A stretch of DNA of 64,000 nucleotides from Verrucomicrobiota bacterium (GTDB taxonomy: Bacteria > Verrucomicrobiota > Verrucomicrobiia > Limisphaerales > MWDV01), in the NCBI GenBank assembly GCA_035411585.1, contig DAONTI010000010.1:47370-111369 (forward strand). The letters are read 5' to 3'. Within the stretch, counting starts at the first letter, position 1. Every line of letters starts with the position of its first letter. A program made the position numbers and the translations under genes. The notes under the pieces were generated by a model. That model did no database searches. It had not been told where the DNA came from and saw nothing but the letters and a program-made list of their open reading frames with translations. This document shows, one piece after another, positions 1,343 to 24,714 of this stretch.

Positions 1343-1358
1343 AATCGGCGAAGTGGTC

Positions 1359-1863: not shown

Positions 1864-1878
1864 GGCGCTTAATGCGGG

Positions 1879-1894
1879 CTGGACAATCTGGCTT
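1879..1894 (-). repeat. 16-nt leader element CTGGACAATCTGGCTT (copy 2), 16 nt upstream of the 4-TM gene start codon
   Basis: Exact repeat of 1359..1374 in the same orientation and at the same spacing from the ATG. Confidence 0.9.
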
Positions 1895-2199
1895 TTATCG
1901 CCAGCGCCGGCCGCGCTGATCCGTCAGAGCAAACCGGCGTTGCCCAACGATGTTGGCCTCTACCGCGAGGCAGAATCAACGGGTCCACAATAGCAACTTC
2001 GCAGAACCGTGTCATGGATCGCATGAAGCCCTACATACGCTGTCCCAGCGGACCAGTCCAGCACCAAAGCCACAGAGTTGCGGACGCTGGCGCCAGCTCG
2101 ATCCGCACGTGCCGTTCACGGACCTTGTTTGATTGAGCTTTTGGCGGTTGAATTGCTCAAACGCCGACGAACAACCTCCGTCTTTCGATAGCGGCGATT

Positions 2200-3921
2200 T
2201 TATTTGATGCGGCGCAAAATGGCTTCGGCAAGCTGACGCCGCAACTTTGGCAACGCGTCGGGTGATTGCTGCCATTGTCCCCAGGTGGGTGCCGCAGTCC
2301 GCACCAGGTTGTCCACCAATGCTTTGCCTCCCAATTGCTCCAGCAGCACGAAATACTCGTAATCTTCCATCCCGTCGCGGAGGCATTTCAGCCGGACCGA
2401 CGCCACCGGGCCTTCAATGCCAGCCTCGTTGCCGGGATAAAACAACGCGCCTTCGCCGTTCCACTGCAATCGGAAGCCCGGCTCATCCCACGGATTCCGG
2501 TCGGGACTGCCCCAGTAAACCGTCGCCCAATAAAGCAGTCCGGTGATGTCGTAACGCCGGTTGAGCCAGGGCGCAATGCGATAAGCGGTCACGGGGAAAT
2601 CCAGTTCCCAATACGGCGGGTTGTCGTCCTTCACCTGTTCGTATTGCGGATGGTACGACGGCGCGGGTTGGACGAGCGCGGTATAGCTCCAGACGCTGTT
2701 GCCTTGAGCGCGCACACGCTCAATGCTGGCCGCGTCAATAAAGCCAAAAAGCGGACACCAAATATCCACCGCCCCGTCCAGCACGCCCCAAGCTGGATCT
2801 TCCGTGTATGGCTGCTCGACCACCAAGCGGCGTAACCTCGGCGCGGCTTCGTGAACCAGCGCGCCCAGTTGCCGCACCCGCTCGTAAGCCCTCGAATCGT
2901 TGGGTTCATCCAGCATGTAAAGGTAGGCGCGTTTGGCCCAACCATGCTTTTCGAGGTAGGCAAACACGGTACGATAGAAATTGATGGCTTGCGAACGGTG
3001 CTCCCCCAAGACGTCGCGGAACGGCGCGCGCGGCACGGGGAAATCAGTCACATGATAACGCGCCACAAACTCGGAGAACTTCTGGTCAGCCGCCGGATCG
3101 AAAACGACCGTTCCGTTGGCTTCTGGTTTCGGCCAAAGCCGATTGGGAAGCGGCGGGTTCAACCGATGCGCCGCCAGCATGGCGATATACCGTTCCTCCA
3201 AGCGGATGTATTTTTCGGGATCGTTTTCCAAGCGGTGATAAGCCCGCAACCGGCCAAAACCGCCGAAATGATTTTCGTGAGTCGGCCCTTCCGGCAAAGT
3301 GAAATCCCAGACGGTCAGTCGCACGGGAATCTTGGCGGGGCTGGCGTTCTTCGCGGTCACCCGCAGCACGCCCTCATAAACGCCGGGAGCGGCATCCCGC
3401 GGGATCCGCACATCCACCCACAACGCTTGATGATGGTCCGGCCATAAGGCAAAACCGGTTGCGCCAAAACGCGGCCCGTCCGGCTTGGCATCGGACCAAC
3501 GAGGTTCGCGCACTGGTTCACCGGTGTAAGGATCTTTGAATGGTATCAACGCATCCGCAATCAAGCCGGGCGCAACCGTGGCTCGCGGCGACGAATGGCG
3601 CACCGGCACCCATGCCACCCGGAAAAGCTCCAGGCTGGTTTCCGGCAGCGACGGCCCCCCGGCTTGGCGCAAAGGGTCGAGGGATGCCGTAACGCCTTCC
3701 AGTTTTTCGTCCACGCCGGTCACTACCACTTGAAACGATTCGGTTTCGCCCCGCGCCCCGGCAATCTCCACAGCGGACGTGCCTGCCAGCGGGCCGGTTG
3801 GCGTCGCGCGCATTGTTGCGGGCAGTGCCGTCAATTGGATGCGTGCCTCGGCGGCCTGCCCGGTCGCGGCCAGGTTCAGCAGGAGTGCTGCGCCCACGAC
3901 GGCAATCAAGATTCGATTCAT
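2200..3921 (-). CDS. secreted DUF4091 / glycoside hydrolase family 123-like protein
   Basis: Signal peptide MNRILIAVVGAALLLNLAATGQAAEA; the longer ORF start at 3951 is also possible. The C-terminal ...GEGALFYPGNEAGIEGPVASVRLKCLRDGMEDYEYFVLLEQL is the characteristic DUF4091/GH123 C-terminal signature as I recall it. Confidence 0.7.
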   Translation of the reverse strand: MNRILIAVVGAALLLNLAATGQAAEARIQLTALPATMRATPTGPLAGTSAVEIAGARGETESFQVVVTGVDEKLEGVTASLDPLRQAGGPSLPETSLELFRVAWVPVRHSSPRATVAPGLIADALIPFKDPYTGEPVREPRWSDAKPDGPRFGATGFALWPDHHQALWVDVRIPRDAAPGVYEGVLRVTAKNASPAKIPVRLTVWDFTLPEGPTHENHFGGFGRLRAYHRLENDPEKYIRLEERYIAMLAAHRLNPPLPNRLWPKPEANGTVVFDPAADQKFSEFVARYHVTDFPVPRAPFRDVLGEHRSQAINFYRTVFAYLEKHGWAKRAYLYMLDEPNDSRAYERVRQLGALVHEAAPRLRRLVVEQPYTEDPAWGVLDGAVDIWCPLFGFIDAASIERVRAQGNSVWSYTALVQPAPSYHPQYEQVKDDNPPYWELDFPVTAYRIAPWLNRRYDITGLLYWATVYWGSPDRNPWDEPGFRLQWNGEGALFYPGNEAGIEGPVASVRLKCLRDGMEDYEYFVLLEQLGGKALVDNLVRTAAPTWGQWQQSPDALPKLRRQLAEAILRRIK

Positions 3922-4288
3922 GGCAATAAATCTGATATTGACGGTTTTCACGGTTTCACATGTCTGACGCCAACAGATCGTGCGGAGTCAAAGGCGCGCC
4001 AAACGCTCATGTGACGGCAGAAAACACCAAACTGAATGTATCTTCCAACGCAGGAGTGGCCTAGAAGTAAATTTTAGAGAATGACAAAAGGAAGCACAAC
4101 GGGAACCTTTACTACTCAAAAAATCGTCCGATACCACGAGGTTGGAAAGACAGAACACGGATTAGTTTCGAGCAGTAAGGTGACATTGCACGACCACGCT
4201 CTGCTCGTCTGATACTACTGCTCACCGTCGCCACCCTTGTTATCTCGTCCTTCAACCTGTGCAGAAGCTCCGTCGAACTTGGGCGCAA

Positions 4289-7078
4289 CTATTGTGTAGC
4301 AATGCGGTAATAGGTTTCCGGTGCGGTCGTGGTCGGCAGGAAAAGTTGCATCGTGTTACCGTCGCCGATGAAGTTGGTGACGTTTATCCAGGGGGCAGTG
4401 GTGAGATTGGTGCGGGATTGCACAGTGTGGGTGCGTCCCGCCTGCGTGAGCAAAGAGAGGCTGAAGTTCGTCCCCGTGTGCCAGGGATTCAGAATCTGGA
4501 CCGGCGTTGCGGGCGGTTCAACAGCGCCAACGACGAAGCGGCGAATCTGACTGGAGGTCAAACTGACTTGAGCATACCAAGAGGAGAACGGCGTGGACGT
4601 TATTATATCCTCCGGATCGCTGATGGTCACTCCCGAAAAATCATTCAGGGTAAAATTAATATGGACCGCGTTGGTGCCAGGCATCAGCGGATTCGGCACG
4701 GTACTGCTCACCACATCATGTGCGAGATTTGTAAACCCGCCACTGACTGTCCTCGAGTCGGAGAGGTACGAACAAAGATAAAGCGAATCATAATTACCGG
4801 GACCGGTCCAGGTGAAGATGTGATCCGTGGAAACCCCAGTTTGCCATTCAGTGGGCGAGGTGACATTCACGGCCGGCAAATCGGACTCCACAAGCGTGTC
4901 AACGTTGACGTTGAATTTGTATTGTCGCTCGGACGGATGGCCCCGGTTGATGTAAATCGTCCAGTCGCCAGCTTCCAACGCCGTGATGAGTGTCGCCAGT
5001 GTGGGTTGGATGGAATAGGAAATCGAATCCTGACCACTGCCATCCCTTTGGGTGGTGAATGTGTTTCCAGGTGAGACAATCTCGTGCGAAGTAATCGGAT
5101 CGGGTTGGACGTAAGTAATTGAGGGATAGGCGAAAAAACCAGGATTGGTTGGATCCGACGACCGCTCGATGTGCAGCGTCATGATCATTTCAATTTCCGG
5201 GATGAATTGCACTTCATCAAGCCAGGCGGCGTCGGCTCCCGCGGTAAAGTCGCCATCCTTGTGATAGGTCCAGCGCAATGTATGCGTGCCAGCCGAAAGA
5301 TTGACTTCGTAAAATTCCCAGCCCGATTCACCGGAGAGCTCCGTTTCACTGTCGCCGTCCACTGTCAATTCGAGGTAGTCGTAGCTGTCAGAATCGTCAC
5401 TCGACACGTTCCACCAGAAGGTCAGTGTACCCGGCCCTTCCACGGTCGTTTCAATCCAGGACTCTTCGTCGTGGTCGATGGCGCCGCTCTGCGCTGCATC
5501 CATGCCATCGTGCGTTTCGTTGGTTTGTCGAAACCATGGAGCGTCTCCGCCGGTGATCCAGAGGAGGCTCGGTTGATCCACGGCATCGGCCAGTTCGCTA
5601 TCACCACCGACATCAGGAATGGTCGAGCCAGGGGCGTCGTAGAGCGCGGCGATTTCCGAGGCACTCAAGATGCCGGAATAAATTTGAACATCATCCAACA
5701 AACCGACATACGCGTGGAAATAATCCCCGCCGATTCGCAAATCTCCCACCTCGGTCAACGCATCCAGAGCGCCAAGGTAACCAACGGCGGCCCCCTCAAA
5801 GTCGCCGTTGACGTAAATCTTCTTTTCGCCGGTGATTTGGTTGCGGGTAACTGCCACATGAACATAGCTGCCAGTGCCTACTACATCCGTGCTCGAATGC
5901 AAAGTGTTGCCCGAGTAGGAGTTTGGATCGCCGGTGAAAAAGGCGGCTTTTGTTCCAGTCAAGGCCAGAGGCACAACATCCGCGGCCGCGCCGGCCAAGT
6001 CGCCCCAGAGGACGCCAGTGCCCACGAAACCGGGATCATCGTCTTCGCCAAACGTCTGTGTCGTTTTTATCCACGCCGACACGGTAAAACTGCCAGCCAG
6101 AACCGGAAACAGGTTTGTCGGCAGCCACAGAGTTGAATAGCCGTAAAGCTCAACGGCGCCCGAACCGGCGATGTTATCGGCGACGTAAGCATGCACGGGT
6201 TGGCCCCAGCTCGAAGAAACCATGATGTGATTTTCGCTCGGAGAAGAATCCCGTCCCAGAAAATCGTTATCGTCGAATTCGTAGTGAGCTTTCAGGCTGT
6301 GCGCCGCCATTCCACCGCCCGCAACACTGAAGTTTGAGATCTTGTAACTATACAACCCGCCAATGCCGGTCCAGTCGCTTATGGGCGCTCCCAAAGCGTT
6401 CGTTGGGGTGGAGAAACTGATTCCAGGGAAATCAAAACGGGAATAACGCACCAAAAGCAGGTTAGGTCCCGGGGTTAATGCAGCCGGACTCCACTCGGTG
6501 GCCGTGCCGGGCAAATAGGCCGACCAGAAGTTGCCAGACGTCTGGTGCGCGGTGTACGCGTAGATGGAAGATAAGGTATTGCTCGGGCCGCTCCAGTGGA
6601 ACGTTGGCGTGGTCGTCACTCCCGTACTGCCGTCCGCCGGAAAATCAATCGTCACCTCGCCTAATGTCTCCGTAGTGAGGTTGTTAATCGACATTGAAAA
6701 TTGATAGAGTTGTTCCGAGGGGTGACCGCGATTCAAATACAATTTCCAGAGGCCATTCGTGCATTCGTGGATGATATCGTTGAGATTGTTTTTCAAGAGG
6801 AAGTCGCTGGCACCATTGGTGTCACCAAATTGCCGCCACACCTGACCACTGGCCGATTCCAGCCAGTGAAAAGTCAGCGGTGGATTTGTGGCCGAGAGCC
6901 CCAACGAAACGGAGTAGAAGTCGAAGTAGAAGTCATGTCCGCGTTGAAGTGAAATTTCGGTGGTAACGTCCGCTTGGGCGAGGGTTGGGGAGCAGGCCGC
7001 GACGGCGCCGGCGATCAACCACCCGCGCCAAACTTGGGCAATCGTGGCCCGAAGGGAAGACAGAAACACGCAGTACAT
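4289..7078 (-). CDS. large secreted LamG-domain protein with bookend-duplicated module and C-terminal YYRI domain
   Basis: 929 aa with a signal peptide (..AACSPTLAQA). The central concanavalin-A-like/LamG segment reads SFTVSAWIKTTQ...YVHVAVTRNQITGEKKIYVNGDF...LRIGGDYFHAYVGLLDDVQIYSGILSASEIAALY. It is followed by a CUB/galactose-binding-like segment (GTLTFWWNVSSDDSDSYDYLELTVDG...GTHTLRWTYHKDGDFTAGADAAWLDEVQF). A roughly 190-aa module occurs twice (WKLYLNRGHPSEQLYQF / WTIYINRGHPSERQYKF). The protein ends ...ETYYRIATQ. Confidence 0.8.
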   Translation of the reverse strand: MYCVFLSSLRATIAQVWRGWLIAGAVAACSPTLAQADVTTEISLQRGHDFYFDFYSVSLGLSATNPPLTFHWLESASGQVWRQFGDTNGASDFLLKNNLNDIIHECTNGLWKLYLNRGHPSEQLYQFSMSINNLTTETLGEVTIDFPADGSTGVTTTPTFHWSGPSNTLSSIYAYTAHQTSGNFWSAYLPGTATEWSPAALTPGPNLLLVRYSRFDFPGISFSTPTNALGAPISDWTGIGGLYSYKISNFSVAGGGMAAHSLKAHYEFDDNDFLGRDSSPSENHIMVSSSWGQPVHAYVADNIAGSGAVELYGYSTLWLPTNLFPVLAGSFTVSAWIKTTQTFGEDDDPGFVGTGVLWGDLAGAAADVVPLALTGTKAAFFTGDPNSYSGNTLHSSTDVVGTGSYVHVAVTRNQITGEKKIYVNGDFEGAAVGYLGALDALTEVGDLRIGGDYFHAYVGLLDDVQIYSGILSASEIAALYDAPGSTIPDVGGDSELADAVDQPSLLWITGGDAPWFRQTNETHDGMDAAQSGAIDHDEESWIETTVEGPGTLTFWWNVSSDDSDSYDYLELTVDGDSETELSGESGWEFYEVNLSAGTHTLRWTYHKDGDFTAGADAAWLDEVQFIPEIEMIMTLHIERSSDPTNPGFFAYPSITYVQPDPITSHEIVSPGNTFTTQRDGSGQDSISYSIQPTLATLITALEAGDWTIYINRGHPSERQYKFNVNVDTLVESDLPAVNVTSPTEWQTGVSTDHIFTWTGPGNYDSLYLCSYLSDSRTVSGGFTNLAHDVVSSTVPNPLMPGTNAVHINFTLNDFSGVTISDPEDIITSTPFSSWYAQVSLTSSQIRRFVVGAVEPPATPVQILNPWHTGTNFSLSLLTQAGRTHTVQSRTNLTTAPWINVTNFIGDGNTMQLFLPTTTAPETYYRIATQ

Positions 7079-7741
7079 GGTATGTAATTCAGTTTGTTAG
7101 AATTTGGCAATATTCACACAGCCCCGCCACGGGGCATCAATGGGCGGAATGTAGATTGCTTTCCGGGCGAGCGCAAATGGGTGAAAATTTTGTCTCCCTT
7201 CCCCCCAAAGTTCCGGTCGGAAGCCGTTAAAAATGCTCTGTTGGGGGAGTCACGTTACCGTTCGATAAAATTTTTGAAGTTCGGTAAATCAACGGAGGAC
7301 GGCAAACTTGTTGGCTTTTCAGCGAGGCAATTGGCGATGAAATGTCTGGCTGGGAAACTCGCGCCGCCCGGAGATTACGGTGTGGTCAGTTAAGGGTAAA
7401 CAATGGCCCAACCCGGGGAGTGTCTGACCATCTCGGGGGTAGAAATCGCTGAGAAATTTCGTTAACGATATTCGAGTCCTCTTTGCCTGAATCCCGACAA
7501 GCGGGGGACGCGATACACAACGGATCTGACCGTTGACGCGTAGCCATGCATCCGTATTGCTTTCCCAAATCCAACTCGATGGGGTGACCGCACGAAACTT
7601 CGGCGGGTTGGGCGCGACTGGCGGCGAAGCCATCGTGATGACGAATCTCCAGCCGCAACGGACAAAGCGGCCGTGGATGTCACCCTGATGCCCCTCAGGC
7701 CGGCTCGCGGAGCCAGCCTTGAGGAGTTTTCAAATACGCCC

Positions 7742-9772
7742 TTATTCCTGAAGCCGGAAGAATCGTGCGGCACCGGTGACGGGAAGCGAAACGACTTTTC
7801 GTTCCCCCACTACGACCGGCGTTTCCGCGACTGGCTGCCACTCCGGTGTGTTGAGATCCGCCGTGGCCTTGAGTTGCCCCGCCGCGCTTGCCGGCCAGGA
7901 GATTTCGAGATTGCCCTCTTTCAAGGTGGCTTCCAAAGCAACGGCCGGGACGTAGGGCGCGGCGGTGATCGTAACCATGTCCATCCACATGGTCCCACTG
8001 GAGCCGCCATAGCTATAATCCGAATCCCGGGCCACGTAGGCATCCACCCCCGCTCCGGTGGCGGTCCTCTCAAATTCGCTCACTATCCGGAAGCCAAAGT
8101 TGGGATTGTTATCCACTCCCGGTAAACCGGCAAAATCGGCGGAAAACAGCAACCACCCATCCCAGGCATTCGAGCACACCACGTGATCCGTCCAAACGCT
8201 TCCGTTGGTCGTGTATTGAATCCGCCAAAACCGGCTGGCGGATACGTTGTTGTTATGTTCCCAGATCACCACGGGCTGTTGATAACCCACGGTGCTAAAC
8301 TGGTATTGCACGCCGCTGGTTTTGTTGTCGGCGTCCACGGCGGGATAATTACCGGTGCGCAGCGCGCTTTGGTCGGCCTTGTTTGGATCCGAATTGGCGC
8401 TGGCTTGGAACCGGTAAGTGGTGCTGCTGCCAATAATTTGGGCTTCGCCGGTGCCGATGCTGGGGAACAGGGTGCCAGTGCTTCCATCATTGTCCGGTAC
8501 GGGACTGTTAAAATCCCAGAAGGCGGCGATTTCGGAACGCTCCGCCCGGATCATGAACGTGGTTTCGCTCTCCAGTTCGCCATCACTCGCCACCACGGCC
8601 AGCCGGCCAATGCCCCCGCTGGTGGGGGTCAAATGCAAAGTTCGGTTCGCGCCGGTCCCCGTGAAGGTGGCGTCAAAGGTGAGAAAATTCGGCTGGACCG
8701 GCCGTACGCTGACCGAGATTCCTTCGGGGGCGGATTCGAGATCGCCGACCGTGAAGTTGAGGTCTGCCGTCGCGCCCGGGGGGAGGGTTTGGTCGGCGAA
8801 GGCGGAGATGGTCGGCGGGGTGTTGAGCGGCAGGATGTTCACGAGAAACATGCGCTCGGTGTAGCGACCGCCACCGTCGGTGACCCGCACGATAATGCGC
8901 GACGTCCCAAGGGCCCCGGTGGGTACCACAGTCACGGTGCGGCTGCTCCCGCTGCCGCCAAACGTGAGATCCTGGATGAGATTCGGATTGGAAAATTCCC
9001 CGGATACGTACAAATCCCCCGCGGGTGTTTCCGCATCGCCCACGGTGAACGAAATCGGCGGCAGCGAACTGCCGGCGCGCACGATTTGGTCGGGAATCGG
9101 TGAGATGCTGGGCCGGGTGTTGGCTGGATTCACGGGGTTGCCACTGACCGTGACCATGTCACTCCAGAACGTGCCGGCGGTGGCGTAATTGGCCGTGATG
9201 CCGACGTAGCGCTGGTTATCCCCCTCGCCGATGGCGGTGGCTTCAAATTCCGCCACGATCCGCACGCTAAAGTTGGGATTGTTGTCGGCCTCCGGCAAGC
9301 CGGCCAGGTCCACCGTGTGAAAATACCAGACGCTGGGGGTTAGATTAGTCAGGACAATGTAATCGGCCCAGGCGCTGCCATCCGCCGTGTACTGGATGCG
9401 CAAATACCGGCTCGGGGTCGAGTTGTTGTTGTGCTCCCAGCTCAAGGAAATGTCTTCATAGCCCGCCGTGCTGAACTGCAACTCCAGTCCGCTGGTCTTG
9501 TTGTGCTCGGTGGCGGGCGGGAACGAACTGATGCGCAGACAACTGTTGTCGAAGATCCACGGATCGGAACTGGTGCTGTTTTGGAACCGGTAGGCAATGG
9601 TGGGACCAATGACGTTGGCCATGCCGGTGCCGATCTTGGGCTGGAGCGTCCCGGTGGCGCCGTCGTTGTCCGGCTCGCCCTGGGTGTTGTAATCCCAAAA
9701 GGCCACTGTATCCGCCCGCAAAGCGCCGGCGGTGAGGATGAGGATCGCGAGGAAGTGCAATGCAATTTTCAT
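7742..9772 (-). CDS. secreted protein: duplicated uncharacterised ~185-aa domain flanking two Ig/cadherin-like domains, C-terminal FFRL domain
   Basis: 676 aa with signal peptide MKIALHFLAILILTAGALRA. Domain copies start at AFWDYNTQGEPDNDGATGTLQPKIGTG and AFWDFNSPVPDNDGSTGTLFPSIGTG, and both contain WEHNNN, R(I)QYT and NNPNF. Between them lie two Ig-like repeats (..ISFTVGDAETPAGDL.. / ..LNFTVGDLESAPEGI..). The protein ends ..GAARFFRLQE. Confidence 0.8.
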   Translation of the reverse strand: MKIALHFLAILILTAGALRADTVAFWDYNTQGEPDNDGATGTLQPKIGTGMANVIGPTIAYRFQNSTSSDPWIFDNSCLRISSFPPATEHNKTSGLELQFSTAGYEDISLSWEHNNNSTPSRYLRIQYTADGSAWADYIVLTNLTPSVWYFHTVDLAGLPEADNNPNFSVRIVAEFEATAIGEGDNQRYVGITANYATAGTFWSDMVTVSGNPVNPANTRPSISPIPDQIVRAGSSLPPISFTVGDAETPAGDLYVSGEFSNPNLIQDLTFGGSGSSRTVTVVPTGALGTSRIIVRVTDGGGRYTERMFLVNILPLNTPPTISAFADQTLPPGATADLNFTVGDLESAPEGISVSVRPVQPNFLTFDATFTGTGANRTLHLTPTSGGIGRLAVVASDGELESETTFMIRAERSEIAAFWDFNSPVPDNDGSTGTLFPSIGTGEAQIIGSSTTYRFQASANSDPNKADQSALRTGNYPAVDADNKTSGVQYQFSTVGYQQPVVIWEHNNNVSASRFWRIQYTTNGSVWTDHVVCSNAWDGWLLFSADFAGLPGVDNNPNFGFRIVSEFERTATGAGVDAYVARDSDYSYGGSSGTMWMDMVTITAAPYVPAVALEATLKEGNLEISWPASAAGQLKATADLNTPEWQPVAETPVVVGERKVVSLPVTGAARFFRLQE

Positions 9773-9811
9773 TTGATTTTGGAGGGTTTTAGCGCATTGA
9801 AGGCTCGGGGT

Positions 9812-10570
9812 TTAAGGCGCGACGTCGAGCCCAAATTTGAACACGTTATTCCATCGTTTTTGGGCCACCCATTCGGCGTGTCCGTCGCAAAAATTCATGT
9901 TCGCCCCGGCCGCGCCGTGGTTGTCTTCCGGCGAATCCGGGTAGTCGTTCAAATCCGTCGGTCCGTTGGCATCATCCCCGTCCAACATCAATAAGATTCC
10001 CGCGGGGCCGGGCTTTTCTCCGATCCGCGGCGTGTAGTGGGTGATGACGTAGCCCGCCACCGAGGCTTCGGTTTTCTTAATGCCCCGGATGTTGCCGGAA
10101 ACCTCGTAGCTGTGTCCTTCGTCCCCGCGTTTCTTGGCGATGAACACCAAGTGGCGGGGAACCATGGTCAGATCCGGCTTGTACACCAGGTTGCTGGGAT
10201 TGATGGTATGGCGTGCGCTAGGGCAGATGAAGCTGCGCACAGTGGACACGTAAGTCGGCCACAGCCAAGTCATATCGTCATCGGTGGAATCCCGATCCGT
10301 GGTGGTGCTGTTGACGGGCAAGCGCCAAGTGGGTGCGGTGTAATGGCCGCGGAAGTCGTGGGCGTACATTTGGCTGCCCAAACCCAGTTGCTTGAGATTA
10401 TTCAAACAGGACGTGCGGTTCGCCCGCTCCTTGGCTTTGCCCAGTGCCGGTAAAAGCATGGCTGCCAGGATGGCAATAATGGCGATGACCACCAAGAGCT
10501 CGATCAGAGTGAACGCCAAATTCCGCCGCCAGCCGCCGCTGCGGCCAGGGCCTGTGTGTCGCTGCGCCAT
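9812..10570 (-). CDS. prepilin-type N-terminal cleavage/methylation domain protein (pseudopilin-like, H-X9-DG-type family)
   Basis: [46 protein letters not shown] is the class III signal/pseudopilin N-terminus. The C-terminal [19 protein letters not shown] resembles the H-X9-DG tail, with one extra residue. It is a close paralog of 23848..24657. Confidence 0.9.
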
Positions 10571-10597
10571 TGGGGAAAGCCGGATGAAAATGACCTG

Positions 10598-11530
10598 CTA
10601 TTGGCTCCGTTGCCGCCGCCACCAGAGTAATCCGCCCAGCATCGAAAGCCCGAACAAGAAACCGGACGCCGGCTCGGGTACCGGAGCAACCGAGGCAAAG
10701 GAGGTGCCGATCCGGATTTCATCAAAATCGGTGGAGTACCGCCCCCTGACGCCCACTTGATCCCAGATCGAGTATTGCATCGTTCCTGAGAAGACCGGAG
10801 TGGACAGCGCGCTTTCATCGGTCAGATCGAGGGGATTCAGCCAGACGGAAACTCCGGTCTGCCCATCCACAGCGTCGGGAAACTCCAGTTTCATCACGAA
10901 AAAGGTCTGCAAATCCATCTTGGCGTCGTCGCCAAAATCCGCCGAAGTCACGGGCGCATTTTGCATTTGAATCCCCCAGTTGCCGGTGGTGTTCGGGGTT
11001 ACTTTCCCCAGCCAAAGCGGGTTGCTGGTCCCGCTGTTTTCCAACTCAACAAAGGCGTACCGCGGGCTGGCCGTGGCAATTCCATCGGATTGAGCTAGGA
11101 AACTGACCCAAATGGTGCTGCCCAGTTCACCAATGGGCTCCGACAACAGCCGCTGGTCCCAGGAATTATTGCCGAACGCCGTCCGAATTTGACTGCCTGA
11201 CGTTTGCAAGGTATGGCCAAATCCATCCGTGTACACCAGTGGCGCCACCCGACTACCCGCCGGATAATCGTCGGGATAAACCGGAATACCCGCGTTCTTG
11301 GACCCCCGTGAAGTCCACGCCCCGGCCCAACCGATGCCGCCCGCCAAACCGGCAATGCCTTCGCCCAGCACACTGTCGGAGGCGTACCATTGCACCCGGC
11401 CGTAATCGAACGGTTCATACGCGATCAACTCGGCCGCCGCGCGATCCACCGCCAAGGCCAGGCAGGGCAGGACGGCGAGTAAGAGGCGATACTTGCAGAA
11501 GTAATTTGTGTGGATTTTCATGAGTATCAA
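10598..11530 (-). CDS. PEP-CTERM sorting-domain protein with LamG-like jelly-roll N-domain
   Basis: Has a signal peptide. The N-domain begins LIAYEPFDY..GIGWAGAWT and ends VWLNPLDL...DFDEIRIGTSFASV. The C-terminus VPEPASGFLFGLSMLGGLLWWRRQRSQ has the three parts of a PEP-CTERM signal: PEP motif, TM helix and basic tail. Confidence 0.85.
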   Translation of the reverse strand: MILMKIHTNYFCKYRLLLAVLPCLALAVDRAAAELIAYEPFDYGRVQWYASDSVLGEGIAGLAGGIGWAGAWTSRGSKNAGIPVYPDDYPAGSRVAPLVYTDGFGHTLQTSGSQIRTAFGNNSWDQRLLSEPIGELGSTIWVSFLAQSDGIATASPRYAFVELENSGTSNPLWLGKVTPNTTGNWGIQMQNAPVTSADFGDDAKMDLQTFFVMKLEFPDAVDGQTGVSVWLNPLDLTDESALSTPVFSGTMQYSIWDQVGVRGRYSTDFDEIRIGTSFASVAPVPEPASGFLFGLSMLGGLLWWRRQRSQ

Positions 11531-11844
11531 CTGGGTAAATTCATTAAAACCTTGCCCACCCTAAGCGCATAATTTTTCGGCGTCAAGACAGTCAGTTTGA
11601 AAATTGAAAAATTTTTCCGAATTGTCACCTGCCCACCCTCGTCCCATCATTTGGTTGAAATGAGATGTGACCACTCGCCGCATGCCGGCTCTTTTGCTTT
11701 TCATCGTTGCCCCACTTCGGTTAACTGCTTGGAAATTTTGCGCGGGCGCATCGTCGGCAATCCGTGGCGCCGGGGGTACCGGAATCATTGAAGGCGGTCG
11801 GCAGTTTCAAAAGCGTTTTGCGGTTTAAGGAACTCAAGGATTGT

Positions 11845-12828
11845 ATGAAGCATTACTCGAAAATTTTCCTAATGACCGGCACTGTCGTGCTGGTCTTGGC
11901 CGCGAATGCGGTGGCGGTCGCTGAAACCACGAAACCGTTCCAGGGCATTACCCTGCGGCATGAAAGACTGACCGAGCCCCGGCAGATTGATGTCCACGTG
12001 GTCCGGGTGGATCTCCGGGCGCCGGGAATCCGGTTCAAGGTCACAGAATCATCACGGCCCGGGGAGAGCCGGCTGACCACGGTGCGGGATTCGCTCGCCA
12101 AGGAAAAAGCGCGGGACGCCGCCGCCTGCCTGGCGGTCAACGGCGCCTTCTTCACCTTCAGCCCCAAGACCGGCATCTACCCGCCCCACTGTTACATTGA
12201 GGGGATTGCCGCCAGCGAAGGCGAACTCTATTCGGCCTGGGAAGACATCGCCATTCCGTTCCCGGCTTTCAACCTTTCCAAAGACAATGTTCCCTCCATC
12301 CTCGACAAGCAGGAGGTGATTCCCAATGACCGCTACCGCTCCGTGCTCACCGATATGGAGCATCGCCAGACGTGGGAGGTGGCCTTGGGGCTTCTGGGCC
12401 GGTATTTGAGCAATTATCCGGAACTCCCCGATGACGATATTTCCGGGCACTTTTACAATGCCATCAGTGGATCGCACCGCCTTGTGCGCTCCGGCACCAA
12501 CACCATGGACATAACTTCCTATCCCAAGAACGACGAACCGCATCCCCGGACCGGGATCGGCTACGGCCCCGGGTTTCTCGTCATTGTGGTGGTGGACGGG
12601 CGTAATCCCGGCCACAGCCTCGGTGTCACCTGTCCCGAACTGGCTGATCTTCTGATCAAAGAGGGAGTGGTTGAAGCCGTGAATTGGGACGGGGGCGGCT
12701 CCACCACGCTGGCAATTGCCGATCCGATACCCCGGCTGCTCAATCGCCCCGTCGGCGTCAAAGGCCGGCCCGGCACCGAACGCCCGGTAGGCGCGAGTTT
12801 GATCATTTTTGCCAATCCGGGTAATTAA
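11845..12828 (+). CDS. phosphodiester glycosidase family protein (NAGPA/DUF2233-like)
   Basis: Signal peptide MKHYSKIFLMTGTVVLVLAANAVA (ATG at 11845; the ORF is open from 11764). Motifs AVNGAFF, AISGSHRLVRSG and PRTGIGYGPGFLVIVVVDGRNPGHSLGVTCPELADLLIKEGVVEAVNWDGGGSTTLAI are typical of the NAGPA 'uncovering enzyme' domain family. Confidence 0.85.
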   Translation: MKHYSKIFLMTGTVVLVLAANAVAVAETTKPFQGITLRHERLTEPRQIDVHVVRVDLRAPGIRFKVTESSRPGESRLTTVRDSLAKEKARDAAACLAVNGAFFTFSPKTGIYPPHCYIEGIAASEGELYSAWEDIAIPFPAFNLSKDNVPSILDKQEVIPNDRYRSVLTDMEHRQTWEVALGLLGRYLSNYPELPDDDISGHFYNAISGSHRLVRSGTNTMDITSYPKNDEPHPRTGIGYGPGFLVIVVVDGRNPGHSLGVTCPELADLLIKEGVVEAVNWDGGGSTTLAIADPIPRLLNRPVGVKGRPGTERPVGASLIIFANPGN

Positions 12829-12942
12829 GTCGGACACGAGCCCACCATGACGCGTCAGCACGCATCGCCACCGGCCCGTAGTTTTCGTCGCCCCACCCGC
12901 TCTTTGATGGGGCCGTTCACGCGATGGGGACCGCGGTTTTGG

Positions 12943-13752
12943 ATGGGTGACATAAAATCAATTTTCCGCGCCGCGTTTCTGCTCGGGGCGGCCCTCATTT
13001 TGTCCGGATGCGCATCCCCATCGGCCAAAGTCGGGCAGGTGCGGGTGTTGTGTTACAACATTCGTCACGGGCGCGGGATGGACGGCCGCATTGATCTGGA
13101 GCGCACCGCCCGGGTGATCAAGTCGGTGCAACCGGATTTGGTGGCCGTTTTGGAAATTGACCGGGCCACGCGCCGCTCCGCAGGTGTAGATCAAGTGGCG
13201 GAGCTCGCGCGGTTGACGGGGATGACATACTATTTCGGCAAGTGCCGGGATTATCAGGGCGGCGAGTTTGGGCAGGCGGTGCTTTCGAAATGGCCGTTGA
13301 CCAATGAAGTGTTGCCCTTGCCGGGGAGCCCCGAATTCGGCGCCCGGATTTTGCAAATCAACCGTGTGCAGCCGCCTTCTGGAATTCCCGATTTGATGTT
13401 CCTGAGCACCCACCTCAGTCACGGCGTCAGTCCCGCCGATCGCCTCGCCCAAATTGAATTCATCAATCAATGGTTGCAAACCCAGAGTCCGGACGCCCTG
13501 GCCATCCTCACCGGCGACTTCAACGCAACCCCGGAATCGGAGGAATTGCAACGTCTGTTGCCTCACTGGCGGGATGTCGGGGCGGTGAACTCCGCCGCGA
13601 CGTTCAAGGCTGATCAGCCGAGGATTCGCATTGATTACATCTTCGCCCGTCCCGCAAGCCGGTGGCGGATCATCCAGACGTACGTGCTGGACGATGCCGT
13701 AACTTCGGATCACCGGCCTGTCTTCGCGGTGCTGAAAGCGACGGCCCAATGA
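12943..13752 (+). CDS. endonuclease/exonuclease/phosphatase (EEP) family lipoprotein
   Basis: Lipobox in MGDIKSIFRAAFLLGAALILSGC; the ORF is also open from the ATG at 12847. EEP motifs present: VLCYNIRHG, DLVAVLEID, TGDFNATPES, IDYIFAR, SDHRPV. Confidence 0.85.
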   Translation: MGDIKSIFRAAFLLGAALILSGCASPSAKVGQVRVLCYNIRHGRGMDGRIDLERTARVIKSVQPDLVAVLEIDRATRRSAGVDQVAELARLTGMTYYFGKCRDYQGGEFGQAVLSKWPLTNEVLPLPGSPEFGARILQINRVQPPSGIPDLMFLSTHLSHGVSPADRLAQIEFINQWLQTQSPDALAILTGDFNATPESEELQRLLPHWRDVGAVNSAATFKADQPRIRIDYIFARPASRWRIIQTYVLDDAVTSDHRPVFAVLKATAQ

Positions 13753-15728
13753 ATCCCACTTTCAGGTCCGGTCCGATCATCAGGGCCCGGTTCATCTTGT
13801 TGTGTTTGGTGCTGGCCGCCATCCCGGGTCTGGCGCAGTTGCTGATTTATGAAGACTTCAATTACGAGCGCCGGCAGGGGTTTGTCAGCGCCGCCATTCC
13901 GGGCGAGGGCATAGATGGATTAAATGGCGGGGTGGGTTTCGCCGGTCCGTGGACCACCACCGGAAATTACTTTTCCGGCATCCCAGTTGGTCCCGGAGAT
14001 TACGGTGCGGGGGTCACTTACGGAAATCCGCTTGGCGCGCGCCTGGCCCCGCTGGCCTACAGTGACGGATTCGGCAACCATCTGGTCACCCGGGGACACC
14101 AACTGCGCACGGCCTTCGGCAACCATTCGCGCGAAGTCCGGCGCCTGGCGTCCCCTGTGGGCGGATGCGGAAACACGCTGTGGATGAGTTTTCTGGCGCA
14201 AGCCCACGGGCTGGCCGGCACCTCACGCTACGCCTTCGTGGAACTCGCCAACGCCGACGGCAACGCCATCCGTCTCGGCAACGTCACCCCCGTCTCCTCC
14301 GGGCAATGGGGAGTGCAGGTGTTGAACAGTGGCGGTGGTGCGCCATCGGCCGACTTGGGATTGCCCATGGACGTCCCGACCTTGTTCCTGGCCCGGTTGG
14401 CATATCCGCCAACGCCTGGCGATCCCGCCCGGCTCGCGGTTTGGCTCAACCCGCACAATCTGGTTCATGAAAAGGCGCTGCCCGCGCCGATCATTGAATG
14501 GGATTTTGCACCGGTCGCCTTTGACCAGTTGAGCGTGGCTGGGCGTTACTCCACAGATTTCGATGAGTTGCGTCTCGGCACCCGCTTTGACGCAGTGACG
14601 CCAACGCAACCCGCGCCGGTCGGCGATGCCTGCCTGACCACCGAACGCGACGGTCAGAATCTCCGGCTCAGTTGGCCCGAAGCCTACACCGATGGGTTGG
14701 TGCCACAGGTCTCCCTCGATTTGCAGGAATGGCAGCCGCTGCCCTTGCCGCTAGAGCGCACCAACGGCCAATGGCGGCTGACCGTGCCTCTCGATGGCCA
14801 GCAGCGGTTTTTCCGATTGCATTATCCCGCGCCGGGACCGTCGCGACCGCGGCTCGCCACCCTCGAAGCCACCGGCTGGCAGCCGCAGGAGGTCCGCGCC
14901 GGACTCGTGTATTACGAACGGCAGTTGACCAATTTGTTGGGCAGTCCACAGGTGGTGAACGTGCTGGCGCTCGACCTCGACCACCCCGGCTTGCGTCTCG
15001 AACTGACCGCGATGGATGTCTGGGGGCTTTCCCGCGTTACCGTGCCGGTGCTGGCCGAACATGCCGGCGCGGTCGCGGCTATCAACGGCGGGTTCGGCAC
15101 CGCCCGCACGTTTTCCGAAGTGGGTTACGGCATCATGATTTTTCGCGGGATTGTCTGGCCTTTCGTCAACGATCCCGATTTCCACGAACTCTACGAAGCG
15201 CATGGGCGCAATGCCGTGGGAATTGACGCCGCCGGGGAGTGGCACTTTGCCTCGCGCGGCGCGGAAGGTTGGGAAGTGGGCGCGCGTTGGCCGACGAACT
15301 GGCCGGGCATGGTGCAGGCCATGGCGGGCGGCAGCCAATTGGTGCGGGCCGGTGCGGTCCATCCGTTGGTGGTGCCGGCCACGACGCGCGGGGCGTACCT
15401 CTCGCACAGTGGTTTGCATGACTTGACCTTCAATCGAAATCCGCGTACCGCCATCGGCATCACCAATCATCGGATCGCGGTGCTGGTGACGGTGGCCGGC
15501 CGTTTTCCGGGCATTGCGGAGGGCATGACCTTGCAGGAGATGGCGGAATTGATGTTGTTCATGGGCTGCCGCGACGCCCTCGAACTCGACGGTGGGGGAT
15601 CCTCCACCATGTGGATCGGCCAGCCGCCTTTCGACGGAGTGGTGAATTACCCGACTGACAACGGCCAGTTTGATCACGATGGCCTGCGTTCCCTGCGCTT
15701 GGCCGTCTTAATCATGGAGACGGATTAA
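13749..15728 (+). CDS. fusion protein: LamG-like N-domain (paralog of 10598..11530) + internal FFRL beta-sandwich + phosphodiester glycosidase domain (paralog of 11845..12828)
   Basis: The start ATG at 13749 overlaps the EEP stop (ATGA). Signal peptide MNPTFRSGPIIRARFILLCLVLAAIPGLAQ. The N-domain LIYEDFNYE..GVGFAGPWT..AVWLNPHNL..DFDELRLGTRFDAV aligns along its length with the PEP-CTERM protein. The middle contains ..LRLSWPEAY..QQRFFRLHYP. The C-terminal part has AINGGFG, MAGGSQLVRAG and PRTAIGITNHRIAVLVTVAGR..ALELDGGGSSTMWI. Confidence 0.85.
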   Translation: MNPTFRSGPIIRARFILLCLVLAAIPGLAQLLIYEDFNYERRQGFVSAAIPGEGIDGLNGGVGFAGPWTTTGNYFSGIPVGPGDYGAGVTYGNPLGARLAPLAYSDGFGNHLVTRGHQLRTAFGNHSREVRRLASPVGGCGNTLWMSFLAQAHGLAGTSRYAFVELANADGNAIRLGNVTPVSSGQWGVQVLNSGGGAPSADLGLPMDVPTLFLARLAYPPTPGDPARLAVWLNPHNLVHEKALPAPIIEWDFAPVAFDQLSVAGRYSTDFDELRLGTRFDAVTPTQPAPVGDACLTTERDGQNLRLSWPEAYTDGLVPQVSLDLQEWQPLPLPLERTNGQWRLTVPLDGQQRFFRLHYPAPGPSRPRLATLEATGWQPQEVRAGLVYYERQLTNLLGSPQVVNVLALDLDHPGLRLELTAMDVWGLSRVTVPVLAEHAGAVAAINGGFGTARTFSEVGYGIMIFRGIVWPFVNDPDFHELYEAHGRNAVGIDAAGEWHFASRGAEGWEVGARWPTNWPGMVQAMAGGSQLVRAGAVHPLVVPATTRGAYLSHSGLHDLTFNRNPRTAIGITNHRIAVLVTVAGRFPGIAEGMTLQEMAELMLFMGCRDALELDGGGSSTMWIGQPPFDGVVNYPTDNGQFDHDGLRSLRLAVLIMETD

Positions 15729-16322: not shown

Positions 16323-17870
16323 ATGATTTCTATGAGATTAAGTTTAATGCGATGGCTGGGCATGCTCTGCATTGGAGGGGTGATGGCGGCGACAGCCCAG
16401 GGCGCCGGGGAGGTGGAGCAATTGCAACGGCAGTTGCGGGAGTTGCAGGAAAACTTTGAGCGGGTGATGCGCGAACAGCGGCAGCAGATCGAAGCCTTGC
16501 AACAGCAGGTGGAGCGGTTGCAAGCCCGCCAGCCGGCGCCGCCGGTCAAGGCTGAGTCTCCCCCGGTGGCGGAAGCTCCTGAAGAGTCCGATGCGGTCCG
16601 GCGCGGGTGGTCGCCCCCGGATCCCATCCGGATCGGACAAGGCGGGGCGTATATGGATATTGGATTGGTCGGGACGTTTGCGGTGGGCGGCTCCACCGCG
16701 CGGGATATTGAAGGCGGGACGCAATTGGGCGGGCACGATCCAAACCGGCGCGGGTTCACGGTGCAGGGGGTGGAAGTGGAATTCGAAGGGGCGGTGGATC
16801 CGTATTTCCGCGGCAGCGCCAATCTCAACTTTGCGATGGATGGGGAAGGGGAGTCGTTTGTCGAGTTGGAGGAGGCCTGGCTGGAAACGATGGCGTTGCC
16901 GGGGAATTTCCAATTGCGCGCGGGCCAGTTCCTGACGGATTTCGGCCGGTTGAATGGGCAGCACCCGCATCAATGGGCGTTTGTGGACGCGCCGCTGGTG
17001 ACGGCGCGTTTCCTCGGTCCGGATGGGTTGCGGAATCCCGGGGCCCGGGTCTCGTGGCTGATGCCAACGCCGTTTTACTCGGAACTATTTCTCGCCGTGC
17101 AAAACAGTCACGGTGCGGGTGCCGCCGGGTTTCGCGGTGGCGGACATCATCACCACGGCGGCCATGGTGATTCCACGGCGTTGCCGCTGGGCTACCGGCA
17201 CGCGGACAATGACCGTGGCATACGGGGCCTGGGGGATTTGCTATGGTCACCGCGGTATGCGGTGTCGTTCGATGTGACGGAAACCCAAACCGTGCTCTTG
17301 GGCGCCAGCGCCGCTTGGGGGCCGAATGCCAGCGGCGGGCGCGGAGACACCACCACCCAAATTTACGGATTGGATGGTTACTGGAAATGGAAGCCGGCCA
17401 ACGCGCACGGCGGTTTCCCTTTTGTCTCGTTCCAAACCGAAGGCCTGGTGCGTCGGTACGGACTGGGCGCGTTTGACTGGGCGGACGAAGCCCAGCCCCA
17501 AGTATTCACCGCGCCGCTGACCCCCGCCCGGTTGGGCCGCGAGACGGTCACGGATTACGGATTTTATGCGCAACTGCTCTATGGATTCCGCAAAGGCTGG
17601 GTCGCGGGACTGCGGTATGACGCGGTGACCGGCGAACGCGGGAAGTATGAAAAACTGGGGTTGACCGACGCCGACGGCGCCCCGTGGGGGCGCGACCCGC
17701 TCCGGCGCAAACGCTGGCGGCTCTCGCCCAACCTGACTTGGTATCCGAGTGAATACTCGAAAATCCGGCTGCAATATAATTACGATGAGCGCGCGGACCT
17801 CGGCGCGGATCATTCGTTATGGTTGCAGTGGGAACTCCTGCTGGGCGCGCATGGGGCGCATCGTTTTTAG
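16323..17870 (+). CDS. putative outer-membrane beta-barrel/porin with N-terminal coiled coil and His-rich loop
   Basis: Has a signal peptide. The coiled coil reads EVEQLQRQLRELQENFERVMREQRQQIEALQQQVERLQARQ. The long region after it has the alternating/aromatic pattern of beta strands and ends in ...LWLQWELLLGAHGAHRF (terminal aromatic). The His-rich loop GGGHHHHGGHGDS is encoded at about 17137..17175. The gene is directly upstream of the metal ABC genes. Confidence 0.65.
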   Translation: MISMRLSLMRWLGMLCIGGVMAATAQGAGEVEQLQRQLRELQENFERVMREQRQQIEALQQQVERLQARQPAPPVKAESPPVAEAPEESDAVRRGWSPPDPIRIGQGGAYMDIGLVGTFAVGGSTARDIEGGTQLGGHDPNRRGFTVQGVEVEFEGAVDPYFRGSANLNFAMDGEGESFVELEEAWLETMALPGNFQLRAGQFLTDFGRLNGQHPHQWAFVDAPLVTARFLGPDGLRNPGARVSWLMPTPFYSELFLAVQNSHGAGAAGFRGGGHHHHGGHGDSTALPLGYRHADNDRGIRGLGDLLWSPRYAVSFDVTETQTVLLGASAAWGPNASGGRGDTTTQIYGLDGYWKWKPANAHGGFPFVSFQTEGLVRRYGLGAFDWADEAQPQVFTAPLTPARLGRETVTDYGFYAQLLYGFRKGWVAGLRYDAVTGERGKYEKLGLTDADGAPWGRDPLRRKRWRLSPNLTWYPSEYSKIRLQYNYDERADLGADHSLWLQWELLLGAHGAHRF

Positions 17871-23616: not shown

Positions 23617-23847
23617 ACCCCGGACCGCCGGCCCAGGAAAGTATCCAATCACCCGGCAAGCTAGGCATTGCTTGATGAATAAATATGCGGCATGTTGCCC
23701 TTGACGGAAAACGATTTTCCGGGCAGGATGGGCCGCGAACATGAACAAATTTTTTGTCCGTGAACAACCAAAACACAGTGTAACCAGCACGTAATCACAT
23801 CGTTGAATCCGATCTTCCAGACACAACCGCAACCATACTCATACCAC

Positions 23848-24657
23848 ATGACCTGTTCTCCCTACTTACGTCGGCGCCGGTCGGCGTTCACCTTGATTGA
23901 ATTACTAGTGGTCATTGCGATTATTGCCATCCTGGCGGCCATGCTGTTGCCCGCCTTGGCCAAGGCCAAGGAAAAGGCCAAACGGCTGGGTTGCTTGAAC
24001 AACTGCAAACAACTCGGCTTGGGCAGCCTGTTGTACGCGGCGGACAATGAGGGGCATCTGGCCGGCCACACGTGGAATTGGAATTCCGGGTATTATAATA
24101 CCGCCTTGGGACAGATCAGGAGCGGTCTAAGTGACCGGGACGGGCGGGACGATGACATGAACTGGCTGTGGCCGACCTATGTGAAGAATGGCGTGGGCGG
24201 CGCGGGGCAGAGCAGTTATGTCTGTCCGGCCACGCGGAATGCGGTATCCACCAACCTCATACGGGATACGGTGGCCGGAGTGGATAAATTGCAACAACTC
24301 TGTGACAATGCCCGGACGCCCAAGGACACCCGGGGCCATAGTTATGAGTGTTTCGGGAATCTGACCGGCTCCCGGAAAAAGACCGAGCAAGCGGTGGCCG
24401 GCTGGACGATCATCAACTACAGGCAGGCGCTGGGCATCAAGCCGGGGGCCTCGCAGATTTTCCTGATCACCGACGCGGATGATGTCCCGGAGCCCGGCAT
24501 CGGCGACAACGAGAATTATCCGGATCCAATGGACAACCACGGTGCGCTCGGCCAGAATGTGGTGTTTTGTGACGGCCATGCCGAATTTGTGAAGCAGAAC
24601 CGCTGGCTCCACGTTTGGAACCTTTCCCACGACTCCAACCATACCAAGGGCGATTAA
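23848..24657 (+). CDS. prepilin-type N-terminal cleavage/methylation domain protein (pseudopilin-like)
   Basis: [52 protein letters not shown]. Shares [26 protein letters not shown] and [19 protein letters not shown] with 9812..10570. The ORF is open from 23803. Confidence 0.9.
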
Positions 24658-24714
24658 ACCATAACCACGGCAATCGAAATTACACCAAAAACCAAACACA
24701 AACCCCAAGGACCA

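Follow-up and report, generated by a model that had tools for sequence, protein, structure and literature searches.

Can a phosphodiester glycosidase of the NAGPA family and an exported enzyme of the EEP superfamily work together to remove glycosyl phosphates outside the bacterial cell? The question is raised by three co-directional genes, here called g1, g2 and g3, at positions 11845-15728 (plus strand) of a 64,000-nucleotide stretch from a Verrucomicrobiota bacterium (contig DAONTI010000010.1 of assembly GCA_035411585.1, positions 47,370 to 111,369), referred to below as the window. A first-pass annotation of this DNA had placed the genes at the coordinates that we read from their open reading frames (ORFs) and had proposed that they form a two-step "uncover and dephosphorylate" module. 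The two-step chemistry is plausible for this lineage, but the module is not conserved: the genes are real, but because their pairing is found in one lineage only, the trio is a plausible candidate for an operon that strips sugar phosphates rather than a conserved system. The reading that we favor, to which we give a probability of roughly 40%, is that an uncultured Opitutia-like verrucomicrobium uses the genes as an operon for extracytoplasmic glycan foraging, in which the EEP protein removes a phosphate ester from the substrate of the NAGPA enzymes. The conserved unit of the Opitutia group consists of the NAGPA paralogs and putative ConA-like binding proteins; the neighboring position is variable and is most often filled by a sulfatase.

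Genes and proteins of the trio

The first gene, g1 (11845-12828), encodes a secreted, single-domain homolog of the NAGPA-family (PF09992) phosphodiester glycosidases, 327 aa long, with a signal-peptide-like N-terminus (MKHYSKIFLMTGTVVLVLAANAVAVA). The longest ORF of g2 runs from 12847, but its true start is probably the ATG at 12943, favored because it fits both the length of homologs (~265 aa) and the 269-aa product annotated at NCBI in sister metagenome-assembled genomes (MAGs). Read in this way, g2 (12943-13752) encodes a 269-aa EEP-superfamily (PF03372) lipoprotein with the N-terminus MGDIKSIFRAAFLLGAALILSGC and the lipobox L-S-G-C; by eye, its N-terminus (MGDIKSIFRAAFLLGAALILSGCAS) appears to match the lipobox pattern L-[AS]-[GA]-C. 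The third gene, g3 (13749-15728), encodes a 659-aa secreted fusion in which a signal peptide is followed by a ConA-like domain, a small beta-sandwich and a NAGPA domain. All three products carry a predicted export signal, either a signal peptide or a lipobox; the first-pass annotation had already described the g1 product as secreted and the EEP protein as a lipoprotein. Searches of g1, g2 and g3 against NCBIfam found no specific equivalog for any of them.

Within this operon of exported glycan enzymes g2 is tightly packed: it starts 18-114 bp beyond the end of g1, and its own end overlaps g3. The ATGA overlap noted in the first-pass annotation can be read at 13749-13752 (ATG at 13749-13751, TGA at 13750-13752), and it holds if g3 starts at ATG 13749. 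Two NCBI MAG annotations made with PGAP give g3 as 643 aa, which implies a TTG start at 13797 and no overlap; we favor the ATG, since with it the signal peptide has an n-region that contains Arg. Start codons differ between pipelines for all three genes: 11764, 11845 or 11872 for g1 (354, 346, 327 or 318 aa), 12847 or 12943 for g2 (301, 281 or 269 aa) and 13749 or 13797 for g3 (659 or 643 aa), the last choice deciding whether the overlap exists.

The family assignments made in the first pass stand. PF09992 recognizes g1 with 75.6 bits (E 6.9e-21) and g3 with 92.6 bits (E 4.1e-26, residues 440-639), the cut-off being 25 in both cases, and PF03372 Exo_endo_phos recognizes g2 with 80.6 bits (E 1.8e-22, cut-off 24.5). 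The catalytic region of g3 spans 14862-15728 (about residues 372-659) and is only 26% identical to g1; judged by sequence, the two are paralogs that diverged long ago, each with its own set of orthologs. Both retain the DGGGS loop, which a 2026 structure paper (PMC13474241) reports to be strictly invariant in NAGPA from bacteria to man, to hold the catalytic Asp (D286 in the human enzyme) and to bind the sugar phosphate. It reads VNWDGGGSTT in g1 (DGGGS at residues 282-286) and LELDGGGSST in g3 (614-618), and is invariant in each of the two ortholog alignments. Also invariant across the g1 family are R235, D251, R253 and R313. The last of these (in TERPVG) lies 31 residues past the DGGGS Asp and aligns with an Arg in the bacterial structure 3OHG, while g3 has an Arg (in GLRSLR) 33-36 residues past its own Asp. 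These Arg residues fit the phosphate-binding R316 of the human enzyme, 30 residues past the Asp, by spacing alone, the vertebrate alignment ending before it. With the DGGGS loop kept, g1 and g3 look like active enzymes.

The family is defined by the vertebrate lysosomal NAGPA, or uncovering enzyme (EC 3.1.4.45; structures 6PKU and 6PKY; human cryo-EM structure in PMC13474241). It has the same PF09992 fold, most of whose core is aligned by the g1-family profile (E 6e-20), and shares with the g1 family the DGGGS loop with its catalytic Asp and a conserved (P/A)RT(A/G)IG motif, while the Arg about 30 residues past the Asp corresponds by its spacing. However, identity to g1 and g3 is below 30%, and the two bacterial proteins lack the propeptide, the EGF stalk, the membrane anchor and the E226/T227 loop. 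This loop recognizes the N-acetyl group; in 6PKU its "ET" lies within a vertebrate-specific 17-residue insertion that is absent from the g1-family profile. Because it is missing, the sugar recognized by g1 and g3 cannot be assumed to be N-acetylglucosamine (GlcNAc), although GH84 genes next to g1 orthologs, described below, are an indirect hint at it. The setting differs as well, in that g3 has an added ConA-like domain and the genes lie in a bacterial catabolic operon instead of serving mannose-6-phosphate tagging in the Golgi. The best sequence matches of g1 and g3 in the PDB are bacterial, namely Bacteroides ovatus BACOVA_00430 (DUF2233; 3OHG) and other homologs (E 3e-8 with the sequence alone, 4.8e-23 with a profile). 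Like g1, 3OHG, 6OZD and 5H3K are single-domain secreted proteins of the NAGPA fold; they are about 30% identical, lack the ConA-like fusion and have no known EEP neighbor. We found no physiological characterization of these three proteins in the literature searched.

The ~370 N-terminal residues of g3 match no Pfam family. Residues 28-375 were modeled with AF2 (predicted local distance difference test, pLDDT, 77) as an all-beta sandwich and compared with the PDB by Foldseek. The best matches were calreticulin, the L-type lectins Emp47p, VIP36 and ERGIC-53, PL7 and PL20 lyases, GH16 enzymes and the binding domains of clostridial neurotoxins, with E-values of about 3e-5 to 4e-4 and target-normalized template modeling (TM) scores of 0.4-0.5. 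On this model the N-terminal domain has a ConA-like lectin/glucanase fold, so that the "lectin-like" label given to it in the first pass is borne out at the level of the fold. The domain itself covers 13839-14618 (about residues 31-290) and carries a conserved motif, GRYSTDFDExRxG. It is followed by a linker beta-sandwich module with the pattern LxWP...FFRL (14631-14828, about residues 295-360).

A paralog of the ConA-like domain, 47% identical to it, is encoded divergently from g1 at 10598-11530 (minus strand). This 310-aa protein ends in a PEP-CTERM anchor (PF07589, 26.2 bits against a cut-off of 20.7; TIGR02595, 22 bits against 16) and may bind glycans at the cell surface; its gene keeps its position in the closest relative of the locus. 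Stand-alone copies of the domain (~365 aa; P0131-P0134) were also found, as were proteins in which the order is reversed, with the ConA-like domain C-terminal of NAGPA (P0135-P0139) and not N-terminal as in g3. The existence of stand-alone, PEP-CTERM and fused copies, the latter in both orders, indicates that the association of ConA-like and NAGPA domains is recurrent and real. The ~260-aa family with the GRYSTDFDExRxG motif, which occurs in PEP-CTERM surface, stand-alone and NAGPA-fused forms, is unannotated and has no Pfam model.

The product of g2 likewise looks like an active enzyme: its catalytic motifs are intact (YN39I, LE71ID, H157, GD192FN194, RID231Y and SD256H257), and N39, E71, H157, D192, N194, D231, D256 and H257 are invariant in an alignment of 37 homologs. 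An AF2 model (pLDDT 92) has the EEP fold. By Foldseek, its nearest structure is 4RUW (E 8e-21, TM 0.75), an EEP protein of Beutenbergia cavernae without assigned function, followed by 3MPR, which is BT3783 of Bacteroides thetaiotaomicron (E 1.2e-17, TM 0.72, 20% identity), and then by 3G6S and TDP2; none of the 50 best matches is a DNase I, ExoIII or sphingomyelinase. The model thus falls in the TDP2/BT3783 branch. A family profile also ranks 4RUW first (E 1.5e-23), then 3G6S, 3TEB, 3L1W, nocturnin and TDP2, and only afterwards BT3783 (3MPR, 1.6e-6; 4C1R, 7.5e-6), which it matches in part, over residues 130-245, at about the level of sphingomyelinase C. 4RUW, the closest solved relative, and the TDP2 structures that dominate the next matches have the same Mg-binding and catalytic N/E/D/N/D/DH motifs as g2; TDP2, however, is a nuclear 5'-tyrosyl-DNA phosphodiesterase of DNA repair, whereas g2 is a lipoprotein in a glycan-enzyme operon.

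The first-pass annotation was right that EEP-family enzymes include a sugar phosphatase of gut Bacteroides, namely BT3783. This Mg-dependent protein was assayed for phosphate release from phosphorylated sugars, solved with Mg, overlaid on TDP2 and deposited as "mannosyl-6-phosphatase" (Cuskin et al. 2015, PMC4978465). Its likeness to the g2 model makes a role of g2 as a sugar phosphatase plausible, although homology alone does not establish that role. A sphingolipid-directed function, suggested by a GH123-like gene in the window, a ceramidase in one related locus (L012) and the idea of the EEP protein as a sphingomyelinase, was left unsupported: sphingomyelinases rank below 4RUW, 3G6S and TDP2 by sequence and are absent from the 50 best structures.

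Gene neighborhoods of the orthologs

Many contigs from anaerobic-digester samples carry copies of the trio; all of them belong to one species-level lineage with at least 90% identity. They are consecutive genes in Verrucomicrobia bacterium ADurb.Bin118 (OQB90990-OQB90992) and, with consecutive accessions, in three other MAGs. A survey of orthologs yielded nine distinct loci carrying g1 or g3 at 57-80% identity (62-80% for g1, 57-67% for g3). The closest of them, L017, has a g1 ortholog of 80% identity and keeps the upstream genes of the window (for a 676-aa protein, a pilin-like protein and the PEP-CTERM protein). The genes after g1 there encode a beta-N-acetylglucosaminidase of family GH84 and a sodium:solute symporter of the SSF type (4799-8302), an arrangement also seen in L020 (g1 ortholog of 72% identity), where GH84 overlaps g1 and SSF comes next (291-4584). 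The two loci hold the closest g1 orthologs, and their GH84 and SSF genes suggest a pathway for the release and uptake of N-acetylhexosamine (HexNAc). In L021, a sulfatase gene precedes a g1 ortholog of 62% identity, which is directly followed by the g3 ortholog (2-4339).

The other six loci were found by their g3 orthologs. Directly upstream, with a 4-bp overlap, lies a sulfatase gene in the Opitutia MAG loci L012 (identical with L022; 8529-11995), L016 (1122-4576) and L024 (8460-11777); a gene for the E2 component of a 2-oxoacid dehydrogenase, again with a 4-bp overlap, takes this place in L011, and one for a 467-aa protein of unknown function in L023, while in L170 the contig ends 60 bp upstream. 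Formylglycine sulfatases thus stand beside g1 or g3 orthologs in four of the nine loci, directly upstream of g3 in three and of g1 in one. Those overlapping g3 orthologs are SGSH-like. The sulfatase pairing is far better conserved than that with EEP and is itself unexplained for a family of "phosphodiester" glycosidases. The idea that the partner sulfatases are disguised phosphatases was rejected, the CxPxR formylglycine motif being present, as was the idea that an SGSH-like sulfatase elsewhere in the window (60158-61612) is their displaced ortholog (23% identity).

Both L012 and L016 have a second NAGPA gene downstream of g3 and, on the opposite strand, an adjoining gene for a PF01663 NPP-type phosphodiesterase/phosphatase (13430-14779 and 5906-6886, respectively, both on the minus strand), possibly a counterpart, though not a homolog, of the EEP protein. 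Taken as a whole, the neighborhood of the orthologs, with its sulfatases, GH84, SSF, LacI-type (PF13377) or LuxR-type (PF00196) regulators and PEP-CTERM ConA-like proteins, is catabolic.

A possible sugar-phosphate-stripping operon and its alternatives

In the glycan-foraging operon that we favor, g1 and g3 would split a sugar-1-phosphodiester at its C1-O bond, so that the sugar is set free and the rest of the glycan keeps a phosphomonoester. They would be assisted by ConA-like modules, one fused to g3 and the other part of the PEP-CTERM surface protein. The EEP lipoprotein would be a lineage-specific accessory, relatives having instead a sulfatase, usually upstream of g3, or GH84 after g1. 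Most likely it would hydrolyze a phosphate ester on the substrate of the NAGPA enzymes, and it could do so in two ways: by removing the phosphomonoester that NAGPA exposes, as BT3783 does in the breakdown of yeast mannan, or by clearing the terminal sugar of a phosphate that blocks it, which would let an exo-acting NAGPA continue along a poly(sugar-1-phosphate) chain. Gene structure, domains, intact catalytic motifs, export signals, the ConA-like fold and the distribution among relatives are observed; which substrates are used, in what order the reactions run and whether EEP and NAGPA are functionally linked is inference. The GH123 and LamG proteins encoded upstream in the window were counted in favor of glycan foraging.

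A more specific version of the favored operon, which we regard as unlikely, is an alternating exo-cycle in which NAGPA would clip the terminal sugar and EEP would take off the phosphate that stays on the next residue, ready for a further round; sugar-1-phosphate polymers would thereby be depolymerized. Its substrates might then be poly(HexNAc-1-phosphate) teichoic acids or capsules, or the GlcNAc-1-phosphate units through which wall polymers are linked to peptidoglycan, and the sulfatase of the sister lineages might play an analogous "unblocking" part on sulfated glycans.

The logic of uncovering and then dephosphorylating has a precedent in the yeast-mannan polysaccharide utilization loci (PULs) of B. 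thetaiotaomicron (PMC4978465), where a glycosidase exposes a sugar phosphate that is attacked by an exported metal-dependent phosphatase of the EEP fold, BT3783. There, however, mannose-1-phosphate decorations are uncovered by GH92/GH38 mannosidases and not by NAGPA; the g2 protein is about 20% identical to BT3783 and matches it in part (E ~1e-6), and in the lineage studied here SusC/SusD are absent and the pairing is not conserved. Also related are the ShfP-like surface calcineurin-type phosphoesterases fused to NAGPA and the TelC-NAGPA proteins of Bacillota, both described computationally (PMC11488536; bioRxiv 10.1101/2025.01.14.632903). They combine NAGPA with a second enzyme acting on phosphoesters or lipids and with lectin or adhesion domains at the surface, their predicted targets being phosphodiester polymers like teichoic acid. 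In these Gram-positive cases the partner is a metallophosphoesterase or a Lipocone protein and not EEP, the association is by fusion and not within an operon, and any activity of the NAGPA part is putative. The first-pass annotation was not aware of a bacterial system built on this pairing, and the literature searched gave no paper on a NAGPA-EEP system; the underlying logic was already known from the Bacteroides mannan PULs. Since PF01663 enzymes stand beside NAGPA in L012 and L016 and NAGPA-calcineurin fusions have been reported, the theme of NAGPA plus a phosphoesterase recurs with different folds. Cooperation of NAGPA enzymes with some phosphoesterase has moderate support; a specific conserved NAGPA-EEP module is unsupported.

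Several observations weigh against the joint action of EEP and NAGPA on one substrate. The adjacency of the two, whose lack of conservation the first-pass annotation had listed among the outcomes that would refute its proposal, is confined to the one lineage. No EEP gene is present in any of the nine loci with g1 or g3 orthologs, and L017, the closest relative, has GH84 and SSF after g1. The pairing was likewise absent from all three species-representative Opitutia genomes with a g3 ortholog. Among 68 NAGPA loci of species-representative genomes that were searched with an EEP hidden Markov model, only one has an EEP ORF within 10 kb, namely Sphingobacterium suaedae L045. In addition, the families that recur among the 108 immediate neighbors of NAGPA genes, led by SusD and Met-zincin, do not include PF03372. 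In the opposite direction, none of 80 metagenome loci of the g2 family (652 kb in total; 37 loci of at least 8 kb) contains a NAGPA ORF. The ATGA overlap, taken in the first pass as a sign that g2 and g3 are coupled, is no proof of functional coupling because g3 orthologs overlap sulfatase genes (L012, L016 and L024) and the unrelated E2 gene (L011) in the same way. By sequence, g2 is no nearer to BT3783 than to TDP2, nocturnin or sphingomyelinase C, and the genes around its family, with a slight recurrence of phosphoesterases and otherwise no consistent pattern, fit general organophosphate scavenging. Finally, the literature searched gave no biochemically defined physiological substrate for any bacterial NAGPA/DUF2233 homolog. 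As for the S. suaedae locus itself (10001-12947), the EEP gene (PF03372, E 2e-14) lies directly downstream of NAGPA, and sister Sphingobacterium loci are without it.

The main rival explanation, somewhat doubtful in our view but a serious one, is that the EEP protein is independent of NAGPA: an enzyme for organophosphate scavenging outside the cytoplasm, whether a general phosphodiesterase, a nuclease or a lipid phosphodiesterase, whose gene came to lie between g1 and g3 in a single lineage and shares no more than a transcript with them. The g2 family is large (1125 hits; 519 confirmed relatives among the 599 stretches matched in a metagenome scan) and consists of stand-alone secreted proteins of ~265 aa with varied neighbors; the three long contigs with the closest homologs show unrelated gene contexts. 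The 91 immediate neighbor genes of the family include Metallophos (4), PF01663 (3) and 5'-nucleotidase (2) and have no dominant theme. An independent EEP also agrees with the lack of NAGPA ORFs around the family, with L021, where nothing separates g1 from g3, with 4-bp overlaps that are not specific to a functional partner, and with profile E-values for TDP2, nocturnin, ExoIII and sphingomyelinase C that are similar to those for BT3783. However, g2 is tightly packed in an operon of exported glycan enzymes, its modeled structure is nearest to TDP2 and BT3783, with DNase I, ExoIII and sphingomyelinase outside the 50 best Foldseek matches, and relatives have another ester hydrolase, the sulfatase, directly upstream of g3 or g1.

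A second alternative, which we consider improbable, dispenses with phosphodiester-linked sugars: the NAGPA enzymes would act on other linkages, such as those of sulfated or HexNAc-rich glycans, or remodel the exopolysaccharide or surface of the cell itself, and EEP would be unrelated or serve structural maintenance. It would account for a genuine formylglycine sulfatase being the commonest neighbor of g1 and g3 (four of nine loci), for the pairing of g1 orthologs with GH84 and for the absence of the vertebrate GlcNAc-recognition loop; many homologs are named "exopolysaccharide biosynthesis protein" by JGI, and the searched literature gave no bacterial member with a defined substrate. It is at odds, however, with the retention of the sugar-phosphate-binding DGGGS loop and, judged by spacing, of the Arg ~30 residues later, with the PF01663 phosphodiesterases that adjoin NAGPA genes in two related loci, and with the SSF transporter and the LacI- and LuxR-type regulators of relatives, which point to catabolism and not to biosynthesis. 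The remaining explanation, a dedicated, evolutionarily conserved two-step module of NAGPA and EEP in PVC bacteria, could invoke the compact operon, the presence of the trio in several MAGs of one species-level lineage and the independent neighborhood in S. suaedae, but it was rejected as very improbable on the synteny survey (0/9 ortholog loci, 0/3 Opitutia genomes, 1/68 NAGPA loci and 0/80 EEP loci), which largely refutes it.

Other genes of the window and significance

Between the PEP-CTERM gene and g1 lies a divergent intergenic region of 314 bp (11531-11844). An Rfam scan upstream of g1 at gathering thresholds found no riboswitch or other RNA element, and a promoter and terminator scan of the region gave weak promoter-like matches only, none above the expectation from shuffled sequence. 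In L017, a LuxR-type response-regulator gene occupies the corresponding spot. Further upstream, two minus-strand genes (7742-10570) are kept beside the g1 ortholog of L017. One encodes a 676-aa secreted protein without Pfam match (7742-9772, 79% identical to its L017 counterpart), and the other a 252-aa protein with prepilin-type N-methyl and DUF1559 domains (85%). The 676-aa protein contains a duplicated ~200-aa module (AFWD[YF]N...NNPNF...EFE) with Ig-like repeats between the copies, and its C-terminal module (LxWP...FFRL) resembles the linker of g3. At the start of the window, again on the minus strand, an IS110 transposase fragment and a DUF2726 gene flank the gene for the GH123-like glycosidase and that for a 929-aa LamG_3 protein (227-712, 758-1342, 2200-3951 and 4289-7078); on sister contigs, one gene caller joined the transposase part to GH123 in one product.

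Downstream of the trio, a 515-aa protein without Pfam match (16323-17870, plus strand) has a His-rich stretch (GGGHHHHGGHGD); its gene immediately precedes metal-transporter genes (ZnuA and ABC-3), and the protein may be an outer-membrane channel for metal uptake. About 17 kb downstream of the trio, the plus-strand genes at 32406-40223 encode a DAO and DAO_C glycerol-3-phosphate oxidase/dehydrogenase, a SorC-type regulator, GDPD, Fe-ADH_2 and two MFS proteins. Such a cluster for glycerophosphodiester and glycerol-phosphate use would be in keeping with growth on the head groups of teichoic acids or phospholipids, although it does not adjoin the trio. Prepilin-type N-methyl/DUF1559 genes recur at 23803-32288, 41889-45296 and 46161-49520 beside genes for very large secreted proteins (1033-1390 aa; Big_9/Cadherin_5 or no Pfam match). 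The window also encodes many carbohydrate-active enzymes, with GH127, GH2, GtaA-like and GH141 proteins and a sulfatase at 49583-61612.

At present, the trio is a reasonable lead for enzyme discovery rather than a new system. NAGPA/DUF2233 proteins are widespread among bacteria, and the Opitutia clusters, which combine NAGPA paralogs with a sulfatase, GH84, SSF, PF01663 or, in this lineage, EEP, are concrete candidates for assigning a substrate to them. If the EEP protein works with NAGPA, the trio would be a second, non-homologous solution for the removal of glycosyl phosphates, after the mannan system of Bacteroides, and it would matter for how teichoic acids, capsules and the phosphoglycans of fungi or protists are turned over in anaerobic digesters. 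Should the alternating exo-cycle prove true, it would provide the first physiological substrate for a bacterial NAGPA/DUF2233 protein and a new catabolic route for phosphoglycans.

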